Positions 15,662-22,791 of a stretch of DNA of 64,000 bases are shown in pieces; position 1 is the stretch's first letter; every line of letters begins with the position of its first letter. This stretch comes from Clostridia bacterium (GTDB lineage: Bacteria > Bacillota > Clostridia > Christensenellales > CAG-917). Made by a program: the position numbers and the translations under genes. The stretch spans positions 1,613 to 65,612 of the forward strand of contig JAQUST010000004.1 of the NCBI GenBank assembly GCA_028710495.1. The letters run 5' to 3'. A model generated the notes under the pieces. The model worked only from the letters and a program-made list of their open reading frames with translations. It did not search any database and was not told the DNA's origin.

Positions 15662-18600
15662 TTGAATTTTAACAAAATCGAAATAAGAGGCTTTAAATCT
15701 TTTGCCGACAAAGTTACTATCGACTTCAAAGACGGTGTAACGGCAATTATTGGGCCAAACGGATGCGGAAAATCCAATATTGCTGATGCAATTCGTTGGA
15801 CTCTGGGCGAACAGAGTGCAAAGTCTTTGCGTGGCAAAAATATGCAGGATGTCATTTTCAATGGCACTGAAAACCGCCATTCAACATCTTATTGCGAAGT
15901 TTCGTTATATTTTGATAACACAAATCATCAAGTTTTTCCAAACATAGATTTTGACGAAGTGGTTATCACTCGAAAGCTTGACCGAAGCGGAAACAGCGAA
16001 TATCAAATCAACAAAACACGTTGTAGAATGAAAGATGTCATCAATCTCATTCACGATACCGGCATCGGCAAAGAAGGCTACTCAATCATTGGACAGGGCC
16101 GAATTGACGAAATTCTTTCTGCAAAGCCAGATGACAGAAGACATATTTTTGAAGAAGCCGCGGGCATTTCAAAATTCCGTTATCAACGCACAGAGGCTGA
16201 ACGCAAACTTGAAAAAACTATGAATAATCTTGCTATCGCAAATGAGCGAATAAGTGAGATTGAGCGTCAGCTTGTTCCGCTAAGAAAACAAGCGGAGGCA
16301 ACGAAAAAGTATATTGATTTCCGTGACCAACTAAAATTGCAAGAAGTCAATTTATATATTTATCAATATGAAAACAATGAGAGTGTAAAGACAAAAATAA
16401 ATGACCGCTTGAAAAATTCTACAAATGAATTGGTTCGTATTGAAAGCAGATTTTCTCAATGTATTGCAGAATATGACCAATGTATGCGTGATATGTCATC
16501 TCTTGACGATGTCACAAAAGAATATAATTCGGAGCTTTTGTCACTTCGTGTTGATGCAGAAAAGGTTGCAGGTGAGGGAAAAGTTTTTCAAGAGCGACTT
16601 GCAAATTTGACATCAGATGAGCGTCGTTTGTCAGACGAATTGAAATCATTAGAGATGCAGCTTTATGTTGTTGCTGAGCAAATCCAAAAAGCTGAGGAAC
16701 AAAAGGAAGAAAAGCTTAAGAAATTTGTTGAACTTTCTGAAGAGCAAAAGAAAACTGAATCGCTGGTTAGTGAATTGTCACTTAGTTTGAGTGATGCTGA
16801 AAATCAGCTTGAATCAAAAAGCAACGATTATTACAATACTATTGAAGAACTTGCAAGTTTGAAATCAAACCTTGCTTCATTCACGACTGAGCGTGGCATT
16901 CAGCAAGACCGCGCAAAAAATCTTCAATCACTTTTAAATCAAAAAAAGCAAAATCTAGATGAGGAAATTACTGCGCTTACTATTGCGGACAGCAATTTTT
17001 CAAATGCTAAAAATGAGATGCGCAAGCTTATCACGGCTCACAACGAAAACATTGCAAACCGAGACGAATCAAAAGAAGCGATTCTTGGTTACAATGAAGA
17101 TATACTTTCGTTCAATACTCGCCTTGGAGTTATGGAAGGAAATTTGCGTTCTCTTATTTCGATAAAAGAGGATTATGCAGGATATCAGGGTGCTGTTCAG
17201 GCACTTATGAATGATGCAAAATCAAATCAATCGATTGCAGGGAAGCTTTTGGGCGTTGTAGCAGAAATTATTGACGTTCCAATTGATTATGTCGCAGCAG
17301 TTGAAAATGCACTAGGTTCTACGCTTCAAAATATTGTTTGCGAAACTGAAGAAGATGCAAGCTACCTCATCGACTATTTGAAACAAAAAAAATATGGTCG
17401 TGCCACATTCCGTCCTATTTCAGCTTGTCGCCCTAAATCCTTAAATGGACAAAACCGTGCAGCACTCAACGAGAGAGGCTGTCTGGGTTTGGTTTGCGAC
17501 CTTATTTCCTATGACCACAAATACGATAAAATTATGGCGGCATTGCTTGGGGACACTGTTATTGTTGACAATAAAATGACTGGTATCCGCTTGTATAGGA
17601 CTTACAATCAATCTTTTAGGATTGTCACACTTGACGGTGATATATTTGCTCAAAACGGTTCAATGACCGGTGGTAGTCGCCGAAACGAAAAGAGTGGATT
17701 GCTTGAACAAGAAACAAATATTTCCAATGCCAAAGAAAATCTCGAAAAATTGAAACATAATCTTTCAAAGATTATGGCTTTGCGCGCTGAAAAGCAAAAA
17801 GAAGTTCAAGAAACTGAACGACTTTCGCAGGAAATTGAAAGCCAGCTTGGAGAACTCAGAGTCAGTTGCAGTTTGTTTGAGGAACGCTCAAAACTAGCTT
17901 CGAAAAATGTTGAAGATTTGAAAACTGAGATTTCTGTGGGCGCAAAAGACTTGGAAGAACTTCAATTTGCAGTGAAAGAACTTACTCAAAAAATTGGTTC
18001 GATTGACCAACTTGAACAGTCGGTTGCGCAAAAGAAAGATGAGTTGGGTTCAATCAGCCAACGCTCAAAATCTTCATCTACTGACAAAAAAATAGAAAAA
18101 GAACAAGTTTTGAACAGACTTATGGAATTGCGTCTCGAAATTGCGACATTGAAAGGCACTATTGATGGACTTGATGCAGAAATTTTCCGCGCACAACGTG
18201 AGCAGGGTTCAATGAAAGAAAGTCAGCTTGACACAAAATCGGAGCATTTATCAATTACTGCACGTATTGATGCATTGCAAAATGCACCACAGCGTACGGA
18301 ATTTTCACAAAAAGAAAGGGACAGAATCAAGTTTTTGCAAGATGAAATCAATGCTTTATCTGATAGAAAGATTTATCTCAATTCGCGCGTTGCCGAACTT
18401 GATAGCGACAGAAACAAATTGTCAGAAGAAAAATCGACAGTTACTGAACGCAAAGCCCGCGATGAAGGTATGCTTGAAAGAGTTGATATAGAAATCCGTA
18501 GTATGCAAGAGCATATTTTGGAAGAATATGACCTTACATATTCAAGTGCGCTTGTATTCAAATTTGAAGAGTTCAATTCCAAAGAGTCTCAATCTCAAAT

Positions 18601-19279
18601 TTCATCATTAAAGAGAGACCTTTCAAGACTTGGAGATGTTAACCTTTTGGCTATCACTGATTTGAAAGAAATGGAAGAGCGATTTGAAGAACTCAGTGGA
18701 GAGCGTGATGACATTCAGGCAGGATATAATGACTTGAAGCAGATTATTGCAGAATTGACCGATGAAATGGTTGTTAAATTCACTGATGCATTCAACAAAA
18801 TCAATGAAAACTTTCAACATATTTTCAAAAAGCTGTTTGACGGTGGTACAGGCAAACTAATTCTTGAAGCAGTCGATGTCGATTCCGATGGAAAAACTAT
18901 TGACCCGCTTGAGGCAGGAATAGAAATCTTTGCACAGCCTCCAGGAAAAAAATTGCAACATATTTCGTTGCTTTCCGGTGGAGAAAAAGCACTTACTGCT
19001 ATATCAATTTTATTTGCGATTTTGGAACTTAAGCCTATGCCATTCTGCGTTTTGGATGAGATTGAGGCAGCGCTTGATGATGCAAATGCCAATTTGTTCT
19101 CTGAACTGTTGCGAATGTTCAGTGACAAGACGCAATTTATTGTTATTACTCACCGCAAACCTACAATGAGAAATGCTGATGCAATTTTCGGTGTTACTAT
19201 GCAGGAAAAAGGTGTGACGAAGATTGTTCATATCGAATTTGAGGAAGCATTGAAGCATGTTCAAGATGCTAGCGCTTAA
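15662..19279 (+). CDS. smc: Chromosome segregation protein SMC
   Basis: 1205 aa. N-terminal Walker A GPNGCGKSN, long coiled coils, a hinge (GYQGAV...), and C-terminal LSGGEKALTAI plus DEIEAALD. TTG start with GAGGA upstream. Confidence 0.95.
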   Translation: MNFNKIEIRGFKSFADKVTIDFKDGVTAIIGPNGCGKSNIADAIRWTLGEQSAKSLRGKNMQDVIFNGTENRHSTSYCEVSLYFDNTNHQVFPNIDFDEVVITRKLDRSGNSEYQINKTRCRMKDVINLIHDTGIGKEGYSIIGQGRIDEILSAKPDDRRHIFEEAAGISKFRYQRTEAERKLEKTMNNLAIANERISEIERQLVPLRKQAEATKKYIDFRDQLKLQEVNLYIYQYENNESVKTKINDRLKNSTNELVRIESRFSQCIAEYDQCMRDMSSLDDVTKEYNSELLSLRVDAEKVAGEGKVFQERLANLTSDERRLSDELKSLEMQLYVVAEQIQKAEEQKEEKLKKFVELSEEQKKTESLVSELSLSLSDAENQLESKSNDYYNTIEELASLKSNLASFTTERGIQQDRAKNLQSLLNQKKQNLDEEITALTIADSNFSNAKNEMRKLITAHNENIANRDESKEAILGYNEDILSFNTRLGVMEGNLRSLISIKEDYAGYQGAVQALMNDAKSNQSIAGKLLGVVAEIIDVPIDYVAAVENALGSTLQNIVCETEEDASYLIDYLKQKKYGRATFRPISACRPKSLNGQNRAALNERGCLGLVCDLISYDHKYDKIMAALLGDTVIVDNKMTGIRLYRTYNQSFRIVTLDGDIFAQNGSMTGGSRRNEKSGLLEQETNISNAKENLEKLKHNLSKIMALRAEKQKEVQETERLSQEIESQLGELRVSCSLFEERSKLASKNVEDLKTEISVGAKDLEELQFAVKELTQKIGSIDQLEQSVAQKKDELGSISQRSKSSSTDKKIEKEQVLNRLMELRLEIATLKGTIDGLDAEIFRAQREQGSMKESQLDTKSEHLSITARIDALQNAPQRTEFSQKERDRIKFLQDEINALSDRKIYLNSRVAELDSDRNKLSEEKSTVTERKARDEGMLERVDIEIRSMQEHILEEYDLTYSSALVFKFEEFNSKESQSQISSLKRDLSRLGDVNLLAITDLKEMEERFEELSGERDDIQAGYNDLKQIIAELTDEMVVKFTDAFNKINENFQHIFKKLFDGGTGKLILEAVDVDSDGKTIDPLEAGIEIFAQPPGKKLQHISLLSGGEKALTAISILFAILELKPMPFCVLDEIEAALDDANANLFSELLRMFSDKTQFIVITHRKPTMRNADAIFGVTMQEKGVTKIVHIEFEEALKHVQDASA

Positions 19280-19594
19280 CAAGCATATAATGATTTTAAT
19301 TTGACATTTATAATCGAAATGTTCTATTTATTTGTATGTGAATACAAACAAGATTAATAAACGAAATACATATCAGTAAAAATAATAGTGCATTTATTTG
19401 CAGAGAAATAATGGGTGCTTGTATGAACAAAATACGAGAATACTTATTGCTTAGAAATTTGCGAATTCTTGATTGATAAAAGACAATAATAATATGTATA
19501 GAAATACAAGAATGCTTTGAATACAAAACAAGAATACTTTGAATGAAAAAACGGGACAGCAATGCACTTTTGTTTATTAAAGTGAAGAGGTATA

Positions 19595-20482
19595 ATGGCA
19601 AGATTCAAAAACGGACTAAAAAAAACAAAGGACAGTCTCGGTAAGCGACTGTTTTTAGCATTTTCTGCCCGTGCGCTTGATGACAAATTTTATTCGGAGC
19701 TTGAAGAAGCCTTGCTTTCTGCCGATGTTGGTATTGGAGCAACTCAAAATTTAATTGAGCAGCTTAAAGATGAAATATACTCACAAAAAATCAAAGTTCC
19801 AGCTGATGCAAAAGCACTTTTGAAAGATTTGCTTATTCAGTCAATCGATTTTGAATTTTCAGAATATGATTTTCCGCTCGTTATTTTACTTTCAGGTGTC
19901 AATGGAGTTGGAAAAACAACCGCTATCGGCAAGCTTGCAAACAAGTTTAAGAATGAGGGTAAAAGTGTGGTTATTGCTGCCGCTGATACCTTCCGTGCCG
20001 CCGCAAGCGAACAGCTTGAAGTATGGGGAGAGCGAGCAGGTGTGCGAGTAGTGCATCACGGTGAAGGTTCAGACCCTGCTGCTGTCGTGTTCGATGCGAT
20101 ATCTTCGGCAAAGGCAAAAGGAACTGAGGTCGTTCTCATTGATACAGCAGGCAGACTTCACAACAAAAAAAATCTAATGGAAGAATTGAAGAAAATTTGT
20201 CGAGTAGTTGAGCGGGAATTGCCCAATTCGGATTTTAGAAAATACCTTGTTTTGGATGCAACAACGGGACAGAATGCTATTTCTCAAGCGGAAATATTTT
20301 CAGAAGCGATTGAACTTGACGGTATCGTGTTGACCAAACTCGACGGAACTGCAAAAGGCGGTGTGGTTGTTGCGATTGCAGAAGATGCCTTTCTTCCGGT
20401 TTTATATGTTGGAATAGGCGAAAAAATAGATGATTTGATTGACTTTGATGCGACTGAATTTATAAGCGAAATGTTGGATTGA
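19595..20482 (+). CDS. ftsY: Signal recognition particle receptor FtsY (NG domain only)
   Basis: 295 aa. Motifs GVNGVGKTT, DTFRAAA, DTAGRL and TKLDGTAKGG. Confidence 0.95.
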   Translation: MARFKNGLKKTKDSLGKRLFLAFSARALDDKFYSELEEALLSADVGIGATQNLIEQLKDEIYSQKIKVPADAKALLKDLLIQSIDFEFSEYDFPLVILLSGVNGVGKTTAIGKLANKFKNEGKSVVIAAADTFRAAASEQLEVWGERAGVRVVHHGEGSDPAAVVFDAISSAKAKGTEVVLIDTAGRLHNKKNLMEELKKICRVVERELPNSDFRKYLVLDATTGQNAISQAEIFSEAIELDGIVLTKLDGTAKGGVVVAIAEDAFLPVLYVGIGEKIDDLIDFDATEFISEMLD

Positions 20483-20548
20483 TTTTTTTCGCTTTATAAT
20501 AAGGTATAATAAATCTGCTATATTTGTTGTTCATCATATTGACAAAAT

Positions 20549-20760
20549 GCAAACATTGTTACAAAACCTTCTAGATTCAACATTTATACTTAATTATCTA
20601 ACAAATAATAATATATGTTTGAAATTTTCTAGAAAACAAGCAAATTTTCTTACAAAACTTTCAAGAACAATATGTGTCAACTTTCTTAAATTTCAAACGC
20701 AAAAAAAGAAAAATTAGTTATAATTTTATCTGAAATAATAAGCAAATATTGTTACAAAAC
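20549..20760. repeat. Three dispersed copies of a 19-nt motif GCAAA[CT][AT]TT[GC]TTACAAAAC
   Basis: Copies at 20549-20567 (GCAAACATTGTTACAAAAC), 20640-20658 (GCAAATTTTCTTACAAAAC) and 20742-20760 (GCAAATATTGTTACAAAAC). Spacings are 91 and 102 bp. Confidence 0.8.
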
Positions 20761-20846
20761 ATATTTTTGCAAAATCGGTATAGCGTACAAGAAAATCTGC
20801 AAGTTTTGAACTAATGTGTATTAAAATACTAAATTATGAAAATTGC

Positions 20847-20875
20847 TTGACAATAATTTTTGAAAATTATATTAT
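20847..20875 (+). promoter_or_regulatory. Sigma-A promoter for ylxM-ffh
   Basis: TTGACA (20847-20852), 17 nt, TATTAT (20870-20875). Confidence 0.65.
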
Positions 20876-20907
20876 GGTGTAAAGGTAAATGCCTTTACAC
20901 CTTTTTT
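20876..20907 (+). terminator. Canonical intrinsic terminator starting directly after the -10 box
   Basis: GGTGTAAAGG (20876-20885) pairs perfectly with CCTTTACACC (20892-20901) around loop TAAATG, followed by T6 (20902-20907). Confidence 0.8.
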
Positions 20908-20918
20908 ATTGTGAAACT

Positions 20919-21245
20919 ATGGAAAAACATTCAATAAGCTTGCTAAATGATTATTATGGAGTATTGCTCACTAATAAACAACGAGAAATGCTCGAATTGT
21001 TCTATAACGATGATATGTCTTTAGGTGAGCTTGCCGAACAGTTTTCAGTCTCGCGTCAAGCAGTTAGAGATGCAATACAGCGTGGAGAAAAATCACTTTT
21101 TGAATACGAAGAGAAACTGGGACTTGCAAAAAAAAGTTTGCTTCTGCTCAAAACATCTGATGAGCTTTGCGAAAAACTCGATTCGAATGAAATAAAGAGC
21201 GCAAGAATGTGCGCTGAAAAAATCAAGGCTATTTTGGAGGATTAA
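20919..21245 (+). CDS. ylxM: YlxM/UPF0122 putative DNA-binding protein
   Basis: [42 protein letters not shown] aligns with the B. subtilis YlxM N-terminus. It lies immediately upstream of ffh. The track start at 20889 sits in the terminator loop and is rejected. Confidence 0.8.
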
Positions 21246-22565
21246 ATGGGACTTTTTGACAACTTAACCGATAAAATGAACCACATATTCTCAAAGATGA
21301 AAAATCGCGGGAGACTTTCTGAGCTTGAAATAAAGCAGGCGATGAGAGAAATTCGTATTGCTTTACTTGAAGCAGATGTAAATTTTGCAGTTGTCAAATC
21401 ATTTGTTCAAACTGTAAGCGAAAAAGCTCTTCACGAAGATATACTGAAAAGCCTAAGCCCCGACCAACAGGTTATCAAAATTGTCAAAGATGAATTGACT
21501 GAGCTTATGGGCAGCAAGCACACAAAGCTTGCAGTTGACCCTAAACCGCCAACAATTTATATGATGTGTGGATTGCAGGGAGCAGGCAAAACGACAATGT
21601 GCGGAAAGCTTGCTAATATGCTGAGAAAAGAAGGCAAGAAAGTTATGTTGGTTGCTTGTGATATTTACCGACCAGCAGCTATAAAACAGTTACAAATTGT
21701 TGGTGAAAAGGCTAAAGTTACTGTATTTGAAAAAGGACAAATTGCCCCGACAAAAATAGCAAAAGAAGCTTTGCATTTCGCCGATAAAAATGATATTGAC
21801 ACAATCATCATTGACACCGCCGGCAGATTGCATATTGATGAAGAACTCATGAGTGAGTTGATTGATTTGAAAAAACTTGTGAAGCCTGCGGAAATTTTGT
21901 TGGTTGTTGACGCTATGACAGGGCAGGACGCAGTTACTGTTGCCGATGCTTTCAATCATCAACTTGATTTGACGGGTGTCATTCTCACAAAGCTTGACGG
22001 AGATACTCGCGGAGGTGCTGCGCTTTCAATCAAGGCAGTCACGGGTAAGCCGATAAAGTTTAGTGGAACAGGCGAAAAAATGGAAGACATTGAGCCGTTT
22101 CATCCAGACCGTATGGCTACAAGAATTTTGGGAATGGGAGATGTGCTTTCATTGATTGAAAAAGCAGAAAACGCTTTTTCGCAAGAGGATGCCCTTGATT
22201 TGCAAAAGAAAATCAAAGAAAAGAGCTTCACCTTGAATGACTATTTGAAACAACTTGAGAGCATAAAAAAAATGGGCAATCTGGGCAGTATGATGCAGAT
22301 GATTCCTGGACTTGCTGGCAAAATGAAAGGTGCTGATGCGGAAATTGATGAGAACAAGATTGCAAAAACAAAAGCGATAATACTTTCAATGACGCCAAAA
22401 GAGCGCAAAAAGCCCGAAATACTCAAAGCAAGTCACCGCAAAAGAATTGCTGCGGGAAGCGGCGCGACCATTCAAGAAGTCAATCAGCTTCTAAAGCAGT
22501 TTGATATGACAAAGCAAATGATGAATAGAATGGCTAGCGGAAAAAAGATGCCGTTTTCAATGTAG
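21246..22565 (+). CDS. ffh: Signal recognition particle protein Ffh
   Basis: 439 aa. Motifs GLQGAGKTT, DIYRPAA, DTAGRL and TKLDGDTRGG, plus a Met-rich M domain. Confidence 0.96.
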   Translation: MGLFDNLTDKMNHIFSKMKNRGRLSELEIKQAMREIRIALLEADVNFAVVKSFVQTVSEKALHEDILKSLSPDQQVIKIVKDELTELMGSKHTKLAVDPKPPTIYMMCGLQGAGKTTMCGKLANMLRKEGKKVMLVACDIYRPAAIKQLQIVGEKAKVTVFEKGQIAPTKIAKEALHFADKNDIDTIIIDTAGRLHIDEELMSELIDLKKLVKPAEILLVVDAMTGQDAVTVADAFNHQLDLTGVILTKLDGDTRGGAALSIKAVTGKPIKFSGTGEKMEDIEPFHPDRMATRILGMGDVLSLIEKAENAFSQEDALDLQKKIKEKSFTLNDYLKQLESIKKMGNLGSMMQMIPGLAGKMKGADAEIDENKIAKTKAIILSMTPKERKKPEILKASHRKRIAAGSGATIQEVNQLLKQFDMTKQMMNRMASGKKMPFSM

Positions 22566-22601: not shown

Positions 22602-22640
22602 GATAGCAAAACAAGATAGCAAAACAAGATAGCAAAACAA
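22602..22640. repeat. Perfect 3 x 13-bp tandem repeat GATAGCAAAACAA
   Basis: Units at 22602-22614, 22615-22627 and 22628-22640 are identical. Confidence 0.95.
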
Positions 22641-22791
22641 GCTTGCTTTTGAAAGCGAATGTTGATGCAATCAAAATAACAACTATCAACTAGAAAATGG
22701 CAACCATCACAAAACACACGCTATATACTGAAATATTTACAACAGAAAAAAATAAATTTATATAAACTAACAAAAGTTTCGGAGGTACAAA

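Follow-up and report, generated by a model that had tools for sequence, protein, structure and literature searches.

What is the function of a terminator-like hairpin that begins at the first base behind a promoter? The question is raised by the region upstream of ylxM and ffh in a 64,000-nt stretch of DNA from an uncultured, Christensenellales-like Clostridia bacterium, referred to here as the window. The gene order in the window is smc (15662-19279), ftsY, an AT-rich spacer of 436 nt, ylxM, ffh, rpsP, khpA, rimM and trmD, and the succession smc-ftsY-ylxM-ffh is also found in relatives; among GTDB species representatives, the best Ffh identity is 75%. On the plus strand, ftsY (19595-20482) is a 295-aa ORF for the SRP receptor, and its Pfam domains (SRP54_N/SRP54) were detected on the identical gene of L001, a JGI metagenome contig that matches the window at 99.7% identity and carries no independent information. 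On the same strand follow ylxM (20919-21245), which encodes a UPF0122 protein of 108 aa with a sigma-region-4-like helix-turn-helix, and, directly 3' of it, ffh (SRP54; 21246-22565), which with the subsequent rpsP-khpA-rimM-trmD makes up the presumed regulated unit. In Bacillus subtilis, the genes from ylxM through rplS are transcribed from a promoter upstream of ylxM (PMC10100781). Transcripts reading through from ftsY, which is co-directional, would meet the hairpin.

A sequence-only reading of this region had proposed that a consensus promoter is followed immediately by a canonical terminator. The promoter is as described: TTGACA (20847-20852) and TATTAT (20870-20875) lie 17 nt apart on the plus strand, match the consensus at 11 of 12 positions, and were the best promoter-like site between 18500 and 23500 in a promoter scan. 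The layout is common to nearly all relatives: among roughly 75 loci from GTDB and some 34 from metagenomes, few are without TTGACA-16/17/18-(-10) upstream of ylxM. By its hexamers, its spacing and its conservation at the orthologous position, the predicted promoter belongs to the sigma-70/sigma-A type. From the usual distance of 6-9 nt between the -10 element and the start, we infer that transcription would begin on the plus strand at one of the bases A/A/A/G at 20881-20884.

The hairpin, GGTGTAAAGGT-AAAT-GCCTTTACACC, also agrees with the earlier description. It occupies 20876-20901 on the plus strand, its first base comes right after the -10 element, and a T6 tract (20902-20907) gives it the shape of an intrinsic terminator towards transcription that enters from upstream. 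It folds at -16.7 kcal/mol with 11 pairs, ten of them Watson-Crick and one G.U, around a 4-nt loop (z = -6.0, with 0 of 200 shuffles as stable). The minus strand of the hairpin has no T-run, and the terminator shape is therefore one-way; no other terminator-like signal was found between ftsY and ylxM. The RNA made from the promoter itself would be different. Because the predicted start lies in the left half-site of a palindrome (see below) and thus in the 5' arm of the hairpin, promoter-made RNA should be unable to form the terminator, as the sequence-only reading had argued: when an RNA begun at 20882, about 7 nt past the -10 element, was folded, what was left of the stem was weak, with about 4 pairs (-3.6 kcal/mol, z = +0.4). 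An attenuator or riboswitch leader was rejected on the same grounds, and no antiterminator partner was found upstream of the T-tract.

The translation start of ylxM was also considered. Only GTGA precedes the ATG at 20919, as noted earlier, and no real Shine-Dalgarno sequence is present there in the window or in the closest relatives (L003, L032, L082, L086), unlike ffh and rpsP, which have GGAGG. A public gene call (P0001, 118 aa) begins at ATG 20889, within the hairpin loop; alignment with relatives supports ATG 20919 over ATG 20889.

Most of the hairpin is a palindrome, to which GG/CC closing pairs are added. This 22-bp palindrome, TGTAAAG-GTAAATGC-CTTTACA (20878-20899), begins 2 nt past the -10 element and consists of a left half (20878-20884), a spacer (20885-20892) and a right half (20893-20899). 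It is the single 14/14 match of the window. In 644 kb of DNA from 80 relatives, from which the region upstream of ylxM was extracted, there are 140 matches at 12/14 or better, 103 of which fall within 200 nt upstream of ylxM, although these 200-nt zones make up only about 2.5% of the 644 kb. A site is present at 74 of the 76 ylxM loci of relatives. The consensus is TGTMAAG-N8-CTTKACA, with half-sites that resemble the -35 hexamer; core half-site columns are at least 90% conserved across orthologous promoters, the half-sites are separated by 8 nt, or by 7 nt in a small number of lineages, and the sequence between them varies freely. The stem is conserved among genomes whose YlxM proteins are only 35-69% identical. 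In the closest relatives (YlxM 58-69% identical), the alignable part of the ftsY-ylxM spacer is limited to 20840-20916, where the stem GTGTAAAGG...CCTTTACAC is kept while the rest has diverged; in two of them, L082 and L089, a T.G wobble in the stem preserves RNA pairing. Conservation in relatives had been named as a check by the sequence-only reading, and the same promoter-plus-palindrome layout was indeed found upstream of ylxM in more than 100 other Firmicute genomes. Because only 20840-20916 of the spacer is conserved and the layout recurs in so many genomes, the arrangement is not due to chance.

The palindrome occurs at two fixed positions relative to the promoter. At 52-54 loci it is in the +1 position, where 0-8 nt (mode 2) separate it from the -10 element; at 46-51 loci it is in the -35 position and provides the -35 hexamer with its right half. 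Both positions are occupied at about 30 loci. The window has no copy in the -35 position. On direct reading of 20831-20852, the left arm is absent at 20831-20837 and the right half-site is present alone, as cTTGACA (20846-20852, plus strand), the same sequence as the right half-site of the palindrome family. A search for isolated half-sites near promoters returned -35 elements alone.

Several further sites deserve mention. Upstream of ylxM in L010, L019 and L035, an extra CTTTACA in direct orientation lies 4-11 nt past the palindrome, and another is found in L173; a hairpin alone does not explain such an extra right half-site. In one high-GC lineage, a palindrome copy lies between ylxM and ffh (L059:3960, L061:3959, L062:3961, L063:3960, L065:3960); these ffh-side copies (L059, L061-L065) stop short of the ribosome-binding site of ffh by a few nt, their arms pair poorly, and they cannot be -35 elements. 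Three related loci have a 12-13/14 match about 540 nt upstream of ylxM (L074:3077, L075:3079, L078:3100), apparently in or beside an S1-like ORF. A second promoter that uses the right half-site of the palindrome as its -35 element was considered and rejected, as it is not followed by a -10 element in the window and, in relatives, lies too near the ATG.

What does the palindrome do? Across the relatives it has the anatomy of an operator, i.e., an inverted repeat with conserved half-sites at fixed spacing, which overlaps the start or the -35 element and has the specificity expected of a small regulon. Its location over -35 elements, its presence at rpsP promoters and its conserved stem point to sequence-specific recognition, most simply as an operator. 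Accordingly we treat 20878-20899 as a candidate operator ('YlxM box') whose half-sites TGTAAAG and CTTTACA, 8 bp apart, would extend from about -4 to about +18. Occupation of the site by a dimer of a helix-turn-helix protein would block RNA polymerase. The most likely binder is YlxM, whose gene opens the operon; YlxM would then repress its own synthesis. In the window, the GG/CC closure and the T6 tract would in addition make the RNA of the palindrome an intrinsic terminator for ftsY or spacer transcripts, and RNA initiated at the promoter, starting inside the 5' arm, would read through into ylxM-ffh.

The terminator features could also be taken as the whole story, that is, an ordinary intrinsic terminator acting as an insulator behind a promoter, whose stem is not recognised by sequence. 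The canonical hairpin with T6, the sole terminator-like signal after ftsY, is in line with this, and T-runs (at least 6 of 8) are enriched behind the palindromes, following 27 of the 46 -35 copies and 11 of the 54 +1 copies against a background of 8%. At two-copy promoters, the T-run lies behind the upstream copy in 26 of 30 cases and never follows both copies of one promoter. For -35 copies, conservation could moreover be accounted for by the promoter on the right arm and by pairing on the left. However, the +1 copies keep TGTMAAG/CTTKACA in more than 80 genomes even though their right arm is not a -35 element, about 70-80% of them have no T-run, and the palindrome also lies over -35 elements and at rpsP promoters. 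The label of a canonical terminator was therefore not borne out, and we consider a plain terminator very unlikely. What stood of the earlier proposal is that the hairpin and its T6 tract are real, and the enrichment of T-runs together with covariation at the stem periphery (see below) makes termination of upstream transcripts a plausible second role of the palindrome, in the window as elsewhere. The combination of insulator and promoter proposed earlier is likewise plausible and recurs in L089, L090/91, L014, L032 and L038-40, where the T-run behind the hairpin is kept, but it is lost in L082 and L086, where the T-run is broken or absent; the -35 copies of high-GC lineages are without terminator features. 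The insulator role is thus secondary to, and built on, the conserved regulatory palindrome.

A more demanding alternative is that the palindrome acts mainly as an RNA hairpin, recognised by YlxM or by a nuclease, which sets the stability, termination or translation of ylxM and ffh rather than access to the promoter. There are signs of selection on the RNA. Three stem positions covary (score 0.308 vs 0.168, with 0 of 500 shuffles as high), among them the innermost pair, which is CG in 12 cases, GC in 12, UG in 12 and UA in 3. Departures from palindromy at +1 copies are G.U in 43 cases versus A.C in 3, although clade structure and the weaker constraint on the right half confound this excess. Together, the G.U excess and the three covarying positions favour selection for a hairpin in the sense-strand RNA, also at sites that have no T-run behind them, and a pure DNA operator does not explain these signals. 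In many lineages, the site adjoins the ribosome-binding site of ylxM or ffh; the ffh-side sites, which lie inside the transcript and abut the ffh ribosome-binding site, would also suit a role at the RNA level. YlxM of Streptococcus mutans is described as binding SRP RNA (PMC8546722).

Other features run against a hairpin-only function. A conserved stem sequence around a free centre is what an operator shows, and is opposite to the picture in most RNA hairpins that proteins bind. The -10 element lies just 0-3 nt upstream of the +1 copy in most genomes, so that the start falls within the left arm and promoter-made RNA is without most of the 5' arm, and the -35 copy lies upstream of the transcription start altogether. 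In 'mixed' sites (left A, right G), the half-site consensus is kept and pairing is poor, and both are true of the ffh-side sites as well. We therefore regard a mainly RNA-level function as unlikely. The DNA and RNA signals fit together if the palindrome is a DNA operator that was recruited as a terminator stem in AT-rich lineages.

Does the palindrome mark other genes as well? An unbiased scan of metagenome contigs for exact GTGTAAAG-N8-CTTTACAC returned 125 matches at 120 loci. Directly upstream of a ylxM homologue are 34 of them, all behind cTTGACA-17-(-10); three are directly upstream of rpsP, where the right half-site is the -35 element, and two are beside ftsY at contig ends. Altogether 39 of the 125 lie at ylxM, at rpsP or at the edge of ftsY, and the remaining 86 are heterogeneous, falling in coding sequence or forming portions of longer terminator stems. 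In Staphylococcus aureus, ylxM overlaps ftsY, and both the promoter of its own and the palindrome site are absent there; instead, a site GGTAAAG-AAAAAACT-CTTTACA-17-TAATAT lies on the rpsP promoter. The palindrome that overlaps the rpsP -35 element is located at L092:4475-4496 (S. aureus) and L154:117-140, and also occurs in L194 and L212, the latter three representing metagenome lineages; L154 and L194 have the S. aureus spacer AAAAAACT despite differing flanks. In two streptococci, the sequence upstream of ylxM yielded no site. We found no description of the motif in the searchable literature, in which coverage of subscription papers is thin. Finding the palindrome at the promoters of both ylxM and rpsP is in keeping with a YlxM regulon.

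YlxM is a suitable candidate for reading the palindrome. By sequence, the ylxM product of the window belongs to the YlxM/UPF0122 family (Pfam PF04297, 1.2e-24; PDB 1xsv, 3e-15; PDB 1s7o, 7e-15), and it also scores 33.5 bits against Sigma70_r4_2 (cut-off 25.7) and exceeds the curated cut-off of Sigma70_r4. The first structure matches of its AlphaFold model (pLDDT 95.7) are 1xsv and 1s7o (Foldseek TM 0.77 to 1xsv), and the next are -35-binding sigma domain 4 and KorA-operator complexes, with weak Foldseek E-values for the likeness to sigma domains (0.08-0.6); the model superposes on SigW domain 4 with -35 DNA (6jhe) with an rmsd of 1.0 Å over 47 residues. The similarity to the YlxM fold was noted in the KorA paper itself (PMC2665229). 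In Mycoplasma pneumoniae, YlxM (MPN424) is listed as one of the nine transcription factors that a study with ChIP-seq and overexpression characterised, and is reported to repress mpn656-660 (PMC6721554); MPN660 is ribosomal protein S16, the product of rpsP (PMC4446450). A different function is described for S. mutans, where YlxM is an SRP accessory protein that binds Ffh as well as SRP RNA (Williams et al. 2014, as summarised in PMC8546722).

The operator might nevertheless be bound by a transcription factor other than YlxM, or by region 4 of sigma-A sitting on a decoy -35 element. Its half-sites equal the -35 consensus, and there is no residue-to-base covariation between YlxM and the site: YlxM residues do not track the A or C variant of the half-site beyond clade structure, as the C/G type is essentially one clade (with counter-examples in L009 and L014). 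On the other side, the site specifically tracks ylxM and rpsP promoters, and in M. pneumoniae rpsP is among the genes that YlxM is reported to repress. It is also simplest to assume that the helix-turn-helix protein encoded next to the site regulates its own gene, and no other regulator gene is conserved in the ylxM neighbourhood of relatives. Another binder thus appears improbable. Taken together, the specificity of the site, its operator-like anatomy, the scan matches at ylxM and rpsP, the repression of the rpsP operon in M. pneumoniae and the sigma-4-like and KorA-like fold of YlxM count for a YlxM operator, whereas the missing site in two streptococci, the SRP role in S. mutans and the lack of tracking between residues and variants count against it. 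On balance, we lean, with somewhat better than even confidence, towards a conserved ylxM-ffh operator, most likely serving YlxM autorepression, that in the window would also act as a terminator for upstream transcripts; binding of YlxM to the palindrome is what we infer from family, fold and site distribution.

The remaining alternative was that the hairpin ends an unannotated small RNA or small protein gene in the spacer. The distance between the end of ftsY (20482) and the ylxM ATG (20919) is indeed 436 nt, as given earlier, and this long spacer includes an ORF of 56 codons (20547-20717) and a three-fold 24-nt repeat. However, the AT-rich part at 20483-20839 on the plus strand (22% GC) has no similarity to the spacer of any relative, and the ORF has no homologue in any relative's locus. 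In Rfam 15, no match reached the gathering threshold, and at E<=10 the sole match was SIB_RNA (E = 0.055; 22 bits, where 56 are required). No promoter-like site of at least 10/12 was found within the spacer, and the fold of the whole spacer has z = -1.8. A gene ending in the hairpin is accordingly a most improbable explanation, and this part of the sequence-only reading is set aside.

The repeats in the spacer can be described on their own. The three copies of a direct repeat of 21-24 nt, AAGCAAAnnTTGTTACAAAAC, are at 20544-20567, 20635-20658 and 20737-20760, spaced by 91 and 102 nt; 0.25 matches per window would be expected by chance, and the repeat is not conserved in relatives. The spacer of L082 has its own, different three-fold repeat. 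Elsewhere in the window, the ffh-rpsP intergenic region has a perfect tandem repeat of GATAGCAAAACAA (22602-22641, 3.1 copies), and the smc-ftsY spacer has a 23-nt tandem repeat (19476-19552, 3.4 copies). Short repeats thus seem typical of the intergenic regions of this genome. In L090 (1960-2069) and also in L091, whose YlxM is 58% identical, a unit of about 26 nt, AAGTATTAAGGTGAATGCATAAGGCGG, is repeated in tandem three to four times between the palindrome and the ylxM ATG.

The arrangement can be compared with several known systems. The closest is M. pneumoniae YlxM (MPN424; Yus et al. 2019, PMC6721554), which belongs to the same family and whose repressed genes, mpn656-660, include rpsP. 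The window has its palindrome at the promoter of an operon that runs into rpsP, and in S. aureus and three metagenome lineages it lies on the rpsP promoter itself, in line with the M. pneumoniae target. In the Clostridia, by contrast, the main site is the promoter of ylxM itself, which would mean autoregulation, and the M. pneumoniae paper (PMC6721554) describes none.

The dimeric autorepressor KorA of RP4 (PMC2665229) likewise acts on an inverted repeat with fixed spacing that lies over the -35 element or the start and beside the regulator gene, and the structural similarity of its DNA-binding domain to YlxM is recognised. Unlike in KorA operators, the half-sites here copy the -35 hexamer, one of them often being the -35 element, terminator features are present too, and binding by YlxM is putative. 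A third comparison is with sigma region 4 on -35 DNA, as in B. subtilis SigW domain 4 (6jhe) and Escherichia coli sigma-E (2h27), on which the YlxM model superposes; the putative YlxM half-site, TTGACA or TTTACA, resembles the -35 targets of that region. Unlike sigma factors, YlxM is without further sigma regions and is not known to contact polymerase, and its inverted-repeat sites imply a dimer.

Like the intrinsic terminators between tandem units, the window element follows a co-directional gene and combines a GC-containing stem with a short loop and a T-tract. It differs from ordinary terminators in that the stem is conserved across orders, the hairpin starts right after a -10 element and the promoter's own RNA would be without the 5' arm; in sister lineages, moreover, the T-run follows a copy whose 3' arm is a -35 element. 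Finally, S. mutans YlxM is encoded by the same gene, first in the ffh operon, and binds Ffh and SRP RNA, but the work, as summarised in PMC8546722, assigns it no DNA target, and it is in two streptococci that the palindrome is lacking upstream of ylxM. As for other palindromic sites, to our knowledge the spacing and context of the CcpA cre, the BirA bioO, the 5-N6-5 sites of CRP/FNR and the Spo0A box are a poor fit.

These comparisons allow a more specific proposal, which we put forward tentatively and which may well prove wrong. YlxM would be a free-standing repressor resembling sigma region 4, which rivals sigma-A at the -35 element or sits on the start, and its operator would be an inverted repeat of -35-like hexamers in the promoter of the ylxM-ffh-rpsP operon. 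Free YlxM, not engaged on Ffh or SRP RNA, would report the status of SRP assembly and feed it back to ffh and rpsP transcription, and the palindromes would have been co-opted repeatedly as terminator stems. If this is true, a single 26-nt element is operator, insulator and, in sister lineages, -35 element.

YlxM is conserved in Firmicutes and Mollicutes, figures among the essential genes listed for the minimal cell JCVI-syn3A, and has variously been called an SRP accessory protein or a putative DNA-binding protein. A sharply defined and widely conserved motif at ylxM and rpsP promoters offers a concrete target for its role. One palindrome able to act as operator, terminator stem and -35 element is also of relevance to the annotation of promoters and terminators and to the design of compact insulators. 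A link between YlxM and the palindrome would tie the SRP pathway to the transcription of ffh and ribosomal genes.
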